Source: Candidatus Nealsonbacteria bacterium (lineage in GTDB: Bacteria; Patescibacteriota; Minisyncoccia; Minisyncoccales; CSSED10-335). From it: a DNA stretch of 64,000 nucleotides. This document shows, in pieces, positions 36,334-39,983 of the stretch. Numbering within the stretch: the stretch's first letter is position 1; every line of letters starts with the position of its first letter. The position numbers and the translations under genes were made by a program. The stretch is from positions 398 to 64,397 of the forward strand of contig JAHXGM010000001.1 in assembly GCA_019923605.1 (NCBI GenBank), read 5' to 3'. The notes under the pieces are model-generated. The model was not told where the DNA came from. It saw nothing but the letters and a program-made list of their open reading frames with translations, and made no database searches.

Positions 36334-36404
36334 CGCGGGGTGGTGGAGTAGTACCATATGAGGCCCATAACCTTAAGGCACCGGTGCAATTCCGGTCCCC
36401 GCAA
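36334..36404 (+). tRNA. Initiator tRNA-fMet (anticodon CAT)
   Basis: 5' CGCGGGGTGG... and 3' ...CCCCGCAA, as in the E. coli initiator. C1:A72 mismatch, anticodon loop CCCATAA (CAT, with C33); CCA not encoded. Confidence 0.8.
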
Positions 36405-36415
36405 CAATAATTATT

Positions 36416-36488
36416 GCCGGCATAGCTCAGCGGTTAGAGCAACAGACTCATAAGCTGTAGGTCGGAGGTTCGATCCCTCCTGCCGGCA
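36416..36488 (+). tRNA. tRNA-Met (CAT), elongator; Ile2-lysidine cannot be excluded
   Basis: GCCGGCA...TGCCGGC acceptor, D-arm GCTCAGCGGTTAGAGC, anticodon loop CTCATAA, T-loop GGTTCGATCC. Confidence 0.8.
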
Positions 36489-36494
36489 TATTCC

Positions 36495-36568
36495 GGGGGC
36501 GTAGATCAATTGGTTAGATCGCCACTCTGTCACAGTGGAGGTTGCCGGTTCGAGTCCGGTCGTCCCCG
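36495..36568 (+). tRNA. tRNA-Asp (GTC)
   Basis: Cloverleaf with acceptor GGGGGCG/CGTCCCC, anticodon loop CTGTCAC (GTC), T-loop TTCGAGT. Confidence 0.8.
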
Positions 36569-36575
36569 CATAAAT

Positions 36576-36743: not shown

Positions 36744-39700
36744 ATGGATAAAGAAAATAAAAAAGAATATACTTCTAAAGATATTTTTGTTTTAGAAGGG
36801 TTAGATCCGGTTCGTAAGAGACCTGGAATGTATGTTGGTTCTACTGGACCAGATGGTTTGCACCATCTAATCAAAGAATGTCTTGATAACTCTTTAGATG
36901 AGGCAATAGCAGGTTATGCTAAAAATATAGAAATATCCTTATTGCCTAATAATCGAGTTAGTGTTACTGATGATGGGCGAGGAATTCCGGTAGATGTTCA
37001 TGCCCAAACTAAGAAATCTGCCCTTGAGACAGTTATGACTACTTTGCATGCCGGAGGTAAATTCGGAGGAGATGCTTATAAAATATCGGGAGGATTACAT
37101 GGAGTGGGAATTTCTGTTGTTTGTGCTCTTTCTAATTTTTTAAGAGCAGAGGTATCAAGAGATGGTTTTAAATATTCTCAAGAATATGTAAAGGGAAAGG
37201 TTAAAACGAAATTAGTAAATGAAGGCAAGACTAATAAAAGGGGAACTACGATTATATTTGAGCCGGATGTTGAGATTTTTAAAGACATAACATTTAACGC
37301 TAAGAAAATAATTAGTAACCTTCGACAACAAGCCTATCTTACTAAGGGAACAAGGATTACTTTTAATGATTTGCGTGATTCAAAAAATGAAAAGAAATAC
37401 TTATTTTATTTTGAAGGAGGAATTTTATCTTATATTAAACACTTAACCAGGGGGATTCAAAAACAACATCCCAACATCTTTTATTGTTTCGGAAATAAGG
37501 ATGAAGTTATTACCGAAGTATCTTTTGTTTACACGGAAGAGTTTGAGTCCTACGAGGAGAGTTTTACTAATAATATAATTACTAAAGAGGGGGGCAGTCA
37601 TCTTACCGGTTTTCGCTCTGCTCTTACAAGAACCCTAAATGATTATGCAAGAAAGAATGGTATCCTGAAGTCTGGTGATGATAATCTTAGTGGAGAGGAT
37701 GTTAGAGAGGGATTAACTGCAGTTGTTTCTGTTAAAATAAGGGAACCTCAATTTGAAGGTCAAACTAAGGGGAAATTAGGAAACCCTGAGGTAAAACCTG
37801 CGGTTGAAGTTGTAGTTTCTGAAGCATTGACTGACTTTTTTGAGAGAAATCCTCAGGATGCAAGGAGTATTGTTGAGAAATGTTTAATTTCTTCAAAGGC
37901 AAGAAAAGCTGCTCGAGCAGCAAGAGAGACTGTTTTAAGAAAGGGAATATTAGAAGGACTTTCGTTACCGGGGAAGCTATCTGATTGTAGTTCCAGGAAG
38001 CCTGAAGAATCAGAACTCTATATTGTGGAGGGAGATTCTGCCGGAGGGTGTTTTTCAGGAGATACAGAAGTTGCTCTAGTAGATGGGAGAAGCTTGTCTT
38101 TTAAAAATCTTATCAAAGAGGAAAAACAAGGGAAAAGAAATTACTGTTACACCATTAAAGACGATGGTACGGTTGGCATAGAATTAATTACTCATCCAAG
38201 AAGAACCAAGAAAAACGTAGAGGTAATAAAGGTTATTTTAGATAACGGAGAAGAGATTACTTGTACCCCTGATCATAAATTTATGATGAGGGACGGCTCT
38301 TACAAAGAAGCAAGGAATATCGACACTCAAGACTCTTTAATGCCACTAAATAGAAAGTTTTCTGAAATAGGAAATGGGATAACCATTAAGGGGTATGAAA
38401 TGATTTTTGATAATAAAAATGGAAAATGGATTTTTATACATCTTTTATCAGACAAGTATAATCTTGAGAAAGGGAAATATTTGAAAAAAGATGGATCTGA
38501 CAGGCATCATATTGATTTTGACAAACTAAACAATAATCCAGAGAATATAAGGCGAATGACGAAAGAAGATCATTTATGTCATCACAGAGAGATGCTAAAG
38601 TATGGTCTTCATCGAGAAGATGTTAAAGATAAATGTAGAAAAAAAAGACAAACAAAAGAATACAGAGAAAAGATTAGTGCGATTATGAGTACTCCGGAAA
38701 TGAGAGAGATGTTAAGCAAGAGAGCAAAAAAGCAGTGGGAAAATGAAGAATATAAGAATTTTATGGTAAGTAAATTTCTGGAATTTTATGAGGCAAATGA
38801 AAAGTATCGGGAAAGAAATCGTAAGGCTTTATATAATAATCAAAAGGAGTATTGGGGCGACTCTGAAAATAGAAAAAAACAAGCGAAAAAAATAAAAGAA
38901 TATTTTGAAAATAATCCTGAAAAAAAGGAAAAACTTGTCATGGAAGCAAAGAAGCAATGGAAAGACGAAGAGTTATTAAAGTGGAGGGCTCAAGAAACTA
39001 AGAAGCAGTGGACACCCGAATTTAGAAAAAGAAGAAAAGCTTCTTATGATAATACATATAGAGAAAAGGCATTGAAATTAATGAAGGAGATTGTTGAAAA
39101 CAATGGAGAGATAGACAAAGGGAAGTACAACCAAAAAAGAATTGAGCTAAGAGATAAGAGTATTTTGCGATATGACACTATTTGTGAACGTTTTTTTGAG
39201 AACAAAGAAGAAAAATTAAAAGAGGCTGTTGCGAATTATAACCACAAGGTAAAAAGAGTTGAGAGACTTCAAGAGAAAATAGATGTTTATGATATTGAAG
39301 TTAAAAAGACTCATAACTTTGCTTTATCTTCTGGCGTCTTCGTTCATAACAGTTGTAAAGGAGCAAGAGATAGAAAGTTTCAAGCAATACTTCCATTAAA
39401 GGGAAAGATTTTGAATGTAGAAAGAGCTCGTTTGGATAAGATACTAGCCTCAAAAGAAATTAAGTCACTTATAATTGCGCTTGGTACTGCAGTAGCAGAA
39501 GATTTTAACATTAATAAGCTTAGATATCATAGAATTATTATTATGAGCGATGCTGATTCAGATGGAAATCATATTAAAACTTTACTTTTAACTTTGTTTT
39601 ATAGATACTTTAGACCATTGATAGACCTGGGTTATCTTTATGTCGCACAGCCTCCTCTGTACAAAATTCAAGCCGGTAAGAGGGTGGAATATGCCTATAC

Positions 39701-39983
39701 AGATGATGATAAGAGAAGAGTTCTGGACTCTATGAAGAAGGATAAGGATGAAGATAAGGTTGCAGGTTTGAATATTCAAAGATATAAAGGTTTGGGAGAA
39801 ATGAATCCTTCTCAACTTTGGGAGACTACTATGAATCCTGATAATAGGATCTTAATAAGGGTTGAAATTGAAGATGTGAAAGAGGCAGATAGGATGTTTG
39901 ATGTTCTTATGGGAGAAGAAGTTCTTCCAAGAAAAAAATTTATTCAAGCTCATGCCAAAAAGGTAAGCAATTTAGATATTTAG
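36744..39983 (+). CDS. gyrB: DNA gyrase subunit B, interrupted in frame by a 434-aa intein
   Basis: GHKL ATPase N-terminus and the Toprim motif IVEGDSAGG. That motif is split by an in-frame insertion which is followed by [26 protein letters not shown]. Removing the insert gives a canonical 645-aa GyrB. Confidence 0.9.
   Translation: [1079 protein letters not shown]
38049..39350 (+). mobile_element. Intein in GyrB (Cys1 ... His-Asn, +1 Ser) with an HNH homing-endonuclease domain and a Lys/Glu/Trp-rich repeat region
   Basis: Starts with Cys directly after EGDSAGG (block A CFSGDTEV, block B TCTPDH). Ends ...[14 protein letters not shown] with Ser as the +1 extein residue. Internal HNH-like [29 protein letters not shown]. 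Length 1302 nt, in frame. Confidence 0.85.

Follow-up and report, generated by a model that had tools for sequence, protein, structure and literature searches.

The gyrB gene in the stretch of Candidatus Nealsonbacteria DNA analyzed here (64,000 nt in full, referred to as the window) encodes a protein of 1079 aa. This raises the question of what has been added to the gyrase subunit, what kind of endonuclease the addition contains and whether it can move. We consider it likely that a mobile intein with two functions has been inserted into the Toprim motif, between EGDSAGG and S, and that it carries a homing endonuclease made of an HNH nuclease and a helical repeat array. This reading is supported by the conservation of the catalytic residues and by an exactly empty site in a closely related genome. 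It resolves the 1079-aa 'GyrB' into an ordinary gyrase subunit of 645 aa and a mobile intein, which is mainly a matter of annotation bookkeeping. The intein itself is an ordinary member of a widespread family that NCBI already annotates, and its endonuclease belongs to the minority HNH type.

The gyrB intein and its layout

The features of the locus on which the argument rests are given below; residue numbers are those of the intein unless stated otherwise, and slashes in motifs mark its junctions.

36744-39983, + strand: gyrB open reading frame (ORF), 1079 aa, with Pfam HATPase_c, DNA_gyraseB, Toprim and DNA_gyraseB_C and an intein splicing domain inside
36744-38048, + strand: gyrB N-extein, GyrB residues 1-435, ending ...IVEGDSAGG (ORF, Pfam HATPase_c/DNA_gyraseB)
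38049-39350, + strand: class 1 intein, 434 aa, Cys436-Asn869 of the precursor, next residue Ser
38049-38348, + strand: N-terminal splicing (Hint) lobe, residues 1-100 (Foldseek and phmmer matches to DnaE and other mini-inteins)
38352-38600, + strand: HNH nuclease domain, residues 102-184, a leading beta-sheet and a beta-beta-alpha core (PHROG, AlphaFold, BFVD)
38499-38588, + strand: HNH core motif DRHHIDFDKLNNNPENIRRMTKEDHLCHHR, residues 151-180 (Pfam HNH_3 on 153-175, conserved His/Asn)
38604-39104, + strand: array of helical repeats, residues 186-352, with nine predicted helices and some eight degenerate 17-aa units of the form PExRxKxSxxxKxxW
38634-38834, + strand: first copy of an internal duplication of ~74 aa, residues 196-262 (hhalign against the second copy)
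38835-39053, + strand: second copy of the duplication, residues 263-335 (hhalign, self-alignment offset, DNA repeats)
39117-39233, + strand: three short helices that follow the array and precede the C-terminal lobe, residues 357-395 (AlphaFold helices 357-367, 375-383 and 387-395)
39243-39350, + strand: C-terminal splicing lobe, residues 399-434, ...VYDIEV..THNFALSSGVFVHN (NCBIfam intein_Cterm)
39351-39983, + strand: gyrB C-extein, SCKGARDR..., the Toprim and C-terminal domains of GyrB (Pfam Toprim, DNA_gyraseB_C)

Removal of the intein leaves a GyrB of 645 aa with the canonical Toprim motif ...IVEGDSAGG/SCKGARDR.... The splicing motifs are present, comprising Cys1, block B T73-x-x-H76, the terminal His433-Asn434 and the +1 Ser; C1, T73, H76, H433 and N434 each occur in 69/69 full inteins of the family, which come from bacteria and archaea. 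The splicing parts are matched by Pfam Intein_splicing (1e-23) and by NCBIfam intein_Nterm (7.8e-12) and intein_Cterm (2e-6). From these intact residues and the essentiality of gyrase we infer that the intein splices out of the GyrB precursor. A protein database entry of 1079 aa that is 99% identical bears the NCBI label 'intein-containing DNA gyrase subunit B [Candidatus Nealsonbacteria bacterium]', showing that the intein as such has already been annotated. The opposite strand of the gyrB ORF holds no ORF of 80 aa or more. GC content at third codon positions is 0.295 in the intein and 0.239 in the extein, a gap too small to argue for a foreign origin.

An HNH nuclease, probably of the HNH_3/I-HmuI type

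The original prediction had read 38496-39098 as an HNH endonuclease followed by Lys/Glu/Trp-rich tandem repeats. In frame, this segment corresponds to intein residues 150-350 and contains the strings quoted for it; the endonuclease module exceeds it at both ends, extending from about residue 102 to 395 (nt 38352-39233).

Within the module, Pfam HNH_3 matches residues 153-175 (E = 7.2e-5, 22.8 bits; profile positions 22-44 of 46 only), and it also matches 18 of the 27 aligned family members, with a best E of 2.9e-11. The PHROG HNH endonuclease families phrog_21964 (2.4e-6) and phrog_7545 (9e-6) span residues 107-186. H153, N162, N166, H175 and H179 are found in 69/69 family inteins and H154 in 68/69. 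AlphaFold models built from 59 homologues were confident, with a predicted local distance difference test score (pLDDT) averaging 92.6 over the full intein and 95.4 over residues 100-400; in these models, strands at 151-154 and 167-170 and a helix at 172-183 form a beta-beta-alpha arrangement, with a small sheet before them (pLDDT >90). Foldseek searches against the predicted viral structures of BFVD returned dozens of phage HNH/I-HmuI-type endonucleases (probability ~1.0, E 1.6e-3 to 3e-2), aligned over about 75-120 residues. The top match, A0A127AYL6 from Bacillus phage SP-15, has a Hint domain, and its predicted structure aligns with the HNH-plus-helical module of the window intein over 304 columns (E = 6e-6); this protein may be an intein carried by a phage and equipped with a similar endonuclease.

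Matches in three profile libraries, the predicted fold and the invariant catalytic residues thus support a nuclease of the HNH (beta-beta-alpha metal) class, as had been proposed, probably of the HNH_3/I-HmuI type. As a member of this class, the module would cleave DNA in a metal-dependent manner. The whole intein compared with the PDB by Foldseek gave Hint-domain matches only, and NCBIfam contained no model for the endonuclease module.

The repeat array is old and degenerate

Lys makes up 20% and Glu 16% of residues 186-352 (35% together), and this region is predicted to form nine helices with turns of 1-2 residues between them, at pLDDT 95-98. With turns as short as these, the helices probably pack together rather than lying singly in a DNA groove. 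In the single sequence, gapless autocorrelation peaked at an offset of 17 residues with z = 3.2, which is below the 95% family-wise level of 3.33, so that this signal alone is marginal. Aligned with hhalign, the family profiles of residues 196-262 and 263-335 matched each other with a probability of 96% (E = 3e-9, 61 columns). When the family profile was aligned with itself by hhalign, the 74-aa offset emerged but the 17-aa unit did not.

The shorter unit was detected with a hidden Markov model (HMM) built from unrelated free-standing nucleases only (consensus DPEYREKVSEALKELWK), which placed units at 204, 216, 253, 273, 289, 323 and 337 of the intein. It scored 10.6 bits on the array versus a maximum of 7.9 in 300 composition-preserving shuffles, and four units of the array exceeded 3 bits, compared with at most one in the shuffles. 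The clearest are EYREKISAIMS (204-214) and PEMREMLSKRAKKQWE (216-231), with five to six others being weaker. At the DNA level, repetition is confined to three (A/T)KKQW-coding 27-mers (74-78% identity) spaced 222 and 51 nt apart, i.e., 74 and 17 aa, which indicates that the duplication is ancient. In 68-69 of the 69 inteins, W230, W269, W304, W312 and W321 are retained, as are numerous further positions. The repeats are real, old and degenerate, and the periodicity claimed for this region holds up in the half-to-half alignment and in the unit HMM, which beat 300/300 shuffles.

The three helices at residues 357-395 are the least conserved part of the intein (mean column conservation 0.48 vs 0.79 for the C-terminal lobe) and are possibly a further DNA-contacting subdomain. 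Two relatives have shortened modules: P0026 (498 aa) lacks a stretch matching about residues 268-322, and P0059 (420 aa) lacks parts of the first half in alignment A1. These modules may be decaying endonucleases.

A precise empty site and a wide, sporadic distribution

The original prediction had called the element possibly recently mobile and had suggested that uninterrupted gyrB alleles be sought to define the homing site. Such an allele was found at locus L081, which encodes an intein-less orthologue of 645 aa, 93% identical to the spliced GyrB of the window, in the syntenic order gyrB-secE-nusG-rplK-cytidylyltransferase-deaminase. At the junction, the intein is exactly absent between GG(A/G) and AGT, and the exteins share 86.5% nucleotide identity. 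This precise alignment defines the homing site, which in the L081 empty allele reads GAAGAGTCTGAACTCTATATCGTAGAGGGAGATTCTGCTGGGGGA/AGTTGTAAGGGTGCAAGAGATAGAAGATTTCAGGCAATACTGCCG. In the window, it is split by the intein as follows.

38004-38048, + strand: 45 nt on the left side of the homing site, identical to the L081 empty allele at 39/45 positions
39351-39395, + strand: 45 nt on the right side of the homing site, identical to the L081 empty allele at 38/45 positions

A search with the spliced GyrB showed that 117 of the 120 nearest GyrBs are free of inteins. Taken together with this sporadic distribution, the exact empty site of L081 points to a mobile element, as far as sequence comparison can tell. 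With a near-invariant active site and a defined empty target, the family lends itself well to work on intein homing driven by HNH enzymes and to the search for new GyrB inteins.

The module is encoded in at least 528 species-representative genomes of bacteria and archaea, a family far broader than the cyanobacterial examples known from protein engineering. Among the 80 best loci, at least 65 share the same gyrB junction, G[DE]SA[GA]G/C ... HN/S[AS]K, and an intein length of 429-436 aa. Hosts include Patescibacteria, Woese-, Pace-, Nano- and Micrarchaeota, Thermoplasmatales (Thermoplasmatota), Omnitrophota, Acidobacteriota and Cyanobacteria, among the last Nostoc, Trichodesmium, Okeania and Microcoleus. 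The union of HNH nuclease and repeats, which had been described as a composite, is nothing special: all of this intein family is built to the same conserved plan.

Mean identity to the window sequence is 57% for the intein and 55% for the GyrB extein. In DPANN archaea, the intein is 57-59% similar and the extein 46-50%; the intein being closer than the extein suggests horizontal transfer in this group. An intein as conserved as its extein, and more so in DPANN, argues for purifying selection and horizontal spread. The nearest intein found (P0225) is 73% identical, compared with 93% for the nearest extein.

Two further observations concern the family loci. Metagenome-assembled genomes labeled 'uncultured Gammaproteobacteria', 'Methanosarcinales' or 'Spirochaetia' (L004, L005, L014, L053, L063, L071 and others) carry inteins 55-63% identical to that of the window, and the taxonomic labels of such bins may be unreliable. 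The gyrB frames of L032, L033, L051, L057, L059 and L070 measure 1500-1800 aa and probably carry one or more additional inteins beside the HNH one.

Relationship to known inteins and homing endonucleases

The closest known systems are the GyrB inteins of cyanobacteria. They share with the window intein the gene, the insertion point (GDSAGG/C...HN/S), the length of 434-435 aa and the HNH-plus-repeat module, and the Waterburya, Planktothrix, Nostoc, Trichodesmium, Okeania, Microcoleus, Symploca and Dapis members are 48-56% identical to the window intein or its central module. The host differs, being a Nealsonbacteria-type Patescibacterium in our case. By sequence, the two clearly belong to one family. 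An HNH intein was reportedly described in 1997 (Dalgaard et al., NAR 25:4626); we take this to be the GyrB intein of Synechocystis PCC 6803 (Ssp GyrB), presumably the first intein with an HNH domain. Mini-versions of the Synechocystis GyrB intein serve protein trans-splicing (PMC3620165). A protein search with a presumed Ssp GyrB N-terminal sequence yielded only unnamed or partial GyrB intein fragments of 50-79% identity and no named Synechocystis entry. Our literature search found no paper tying 'GyrB intein' to HNH, and a search with the peptide CFSGDT likewise gave nothing.

Among free-standing enzymes, the module resembles the I-HmuI/HNH_3 phage endonucleases (PF13392, with NUMOD4, NUMOD3 and NUMOD1 modules) in its beta-beta-alpha-metal core with the pattern HH...NN..N...H, the leading beta-sheet, the helical DNA-binding modules after the nuclease, and the structural and profile matches from BFVD and the HNH libraries. 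It differs in lying inside an intein instead of being free-standing or intron-encoded, in its only partial HNH_3 match, and in the lack of any Pfam NUMOD1/NUMOD4 match or of a match to I-HmuI in the PDB by sequence or Foldseek. Outside inteins, the module has its clearest counterpart in a 'homing endonuclease' of Aeromonas phage phiA8-29 (YP_009833003.1, L083:1354-2301), which is 32% identical over intein residues 150-311 and has an HNH motif with five units of the form EE[YF]REKxSAAIKKSW directly after it. Unlike the intein, this is a free-standing phage gene without Hint lobes, and its repeats are far more regular.

The repeats and the NUMOD3 family

The original prediction had also compared the repeats with NUMOD-like DNA-binding elements. 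NUMOD3 (PF07460), known from I-TevI, I-BmoI and I-HmuI, is likewise a helical unit of about 17 aa with the core E-x-[RK]-x-K-[IM]-S-x3-K, arranged in tandem beside a nuclease; the intein units end in x-W and not in G-[KR], and most of them are degenerate. In I-TevI and I-HmuI, NUMOD3 is a minor-groove-binding helix (PMC2853131).

When 1.84 billion representative proteins were searched with a profile restricted to the array, 299 matches resulted. The strong matches were GyrB inteins, and the weaker ones, with several matching stretches each, were free-standing proteins with tandem 17-aa arrays of the form DPE[YF]RxKxSxxxKxxW. A GIY-YIG domain accompanied the array in 11 of 53 free-standing proteins; others had HNH, Vsr/DUF559/MTES_1575-type, phage endonuclease I or Mom-family domains, and several ended in an I-HmuI_NUMOD-like/NUMOD1 helix-turn-helix. 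The array thereby ties the inteins to a large and poorly annotated set of repeat-bearing free-standing nucleases.

The link to NUMOD3 runs through a protein of 551 aa (P0195) whose roughly twelve tandem 17-aa units alternate between W-ending (KRRWE) and G[KR]-ending, NUMOD3-type forms. Pfam NUMOD3 scores 29.1 bits on this protein against a cut-off of 20.4 (best stretch 234-248), and the intein repeat profile A5 matches it at 65-291, an array that includes the NUMOD3 stretch. Since Pfam NUMOD3 misses the intein and this mixed array forms the bridge, the connection is indirect: the intein array appears to be a diverged, W-ending relative of NUMOD3 that would work likewise, with membership in the Pfam family not reached directly. 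The likeness to NUMOD repeats is thus borne out by the arrays on free-standing GIY-YIG and HNH nucleases but not by the Pfam model. By analogy, the intein array would bind DNA.

W-type arrays reach about twelve units, and Pfam has no model of the W-ending unit. A tentative idea, which we regard as doubtful, is that this unit is an unrecognized, very widespread sister of NUMOD3, a modular DNA-binding repeat distributed over at least four unrelated nuclease folds (HNH, GIY-YIG, Vsr/DUF559-like and endonuclease-I-like), inteins and a SET protein. Should every unit bind a DNA segment of set length, arrays could offer a simple means of assembling long target sites repeat by repeat. What is new here is modest and consists in placing the intein array in a large, poorly modeled W-ending NUMOD3-like family common to several nuclease classes.

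Current Pfam models mislabel repeat arrays of free-standing nucleases. The GerD model (PF17898, a spore germination protein) exceeds its gathering cut-off on the arrays of P0156, P0185, P0158, P0159 and P0162, for example with 51.6 and 41.6 bits against 29.5, and on free-standing arrays Pfam calls NUMOD3 rarely and GerD more often. These matches are probably a source of wrong automatic annotation.

Two domain arrangements were observed in passing. The C-terminus of P0195 is a SET methyltransferase domain (PF00856, 1.8e-11), so that a nuclease-type DNA-binding array sits on a non-nuclease. P0112, P0166 and P0171 (695-748 aa) combine an N-terminal Cys-rich segment, a long W-type array, a Vsr/DUF559-like nuclease region and a Mom-family domain (PF25680, best 1.6e-21).

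A proposed homing cycle and its alternatives

In the cycle that we propose, the two Hint lobes would excise the intein from the GyrB precursor, and gyrase would be made normally. The I-HmuI/HNH_3-type nuclease (102-184) is tethered to the basic, Trp-studded array (186-352), which is followed by the small three-helix subdomain. Array and terminal helices would bind the conserved intein-less gyrB sequence around ...GGAGATTCTGCNGGNGGN/AGTTGTAARGG..., with the binding module either excised or still borne by the precursor. The HNH center would then nick or cut this site, and recombinational repair from the intein-bearing allele would copy the intein in. With NUMOD3 repeats, of which the array would be a relative, homing endonucleases of the free-standing GIY-YIG and HNH kinds grip their long target sites. 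The domain identities, the conservation, the homology of the repeats, the empty site and a distribution that is sporadic yet spans bacteria and archaea are observations, and DNA binding by the array, cleavage and homing are predictions.

Several results weigh against a mobile intein with this HNH-plus-NUMOD3-like endonuclease. The HNH_3 score of the window intein lies 2 bits under the curated cut-off of 24.8. Among solved structures, none resembling the array came to light: Foldseek of the module alone against the PDB gave nothing below E = 4.7, with I-PpoI in second place and not significant, and PDB sequence profile searches with the array (A5) or with HNH plus array (A3) gave no meaningful match. 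Pfam NUMOD3 finds nothing in the intein or in its 26 relatives at E<=10, and neither do NUMOD1 and NUMOD4. The distance to the nearest intein compared with that to the nearest extein means that acquisition is not demonstrably very recent; the suggestion of a possibly recent mobility is supported by the empty site in a relative with 93% GyrB identity and by the intein-less state of most of the nearest GyrBs. Finally, the similar mean identities of intein and extein would also fit a function retained by the host without homing.

This last point leads to an alternative that we regard as improbable, in which the module is kept for a host role, such as DNA-dependent control of GyrB splicing or DNA binding by the excised intein, and the nuclease is inactive or an inconsequential nickase. 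The intein is indeed conserved like its essential extein, its length hardly varies among the 65 or more loci, and a simple homing cycle predicts that the endonuclease decays once fixed. However, the catalytic residues show almost no variation, and free-standing homing endonucleases of phages carry the same module. Moreover, its absence from most of the closest GyrBs and the existence of a precise empty site indicate that the host has no need of the intein. That the Lys/Glu/Trp-rich stretch is a low-complexity linker whose periodicity is compositional noise is very improbable. Its Lys and Glu content and the subthreshold autocorrelation peak are what such a linker would show, but the profile-profile alignment of the two halves, the external unit HMM and the conservation of the five Trp and other positions refute it, and the region is modeled as helices at high pLDDT. 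We give practically no credence to a third possibility, a LAGLIDADG (dodecapeptide) enzyme with a coincidental HNH-like string. LAGLIDADG is the usual endonuclease type of inteins (PMC7765530), which bears out the remark that HNH is the less common one. No LAGLIDADG family matched the intein or its 26 relatives at E<=10, though, and the predicted fold has all-alpha hairpins after the HNH core instead of an alpha-beta-beta-alpha-beta-beta-alpha order, with HNH enzymes as its structural matches; this identity was rejected. The mobile intein with an HNH homing endonuclease is therefore the explanation that we favor, and the original prediction proves essentially right in what it observed and in how it read it.

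Neighboring genes

Three tRNA genes (Met, Met, Asp) are clustered at 36334-36569 of the window, directly 5' of gyrB, and account for a local rise in GC content to 0.45-0.48.

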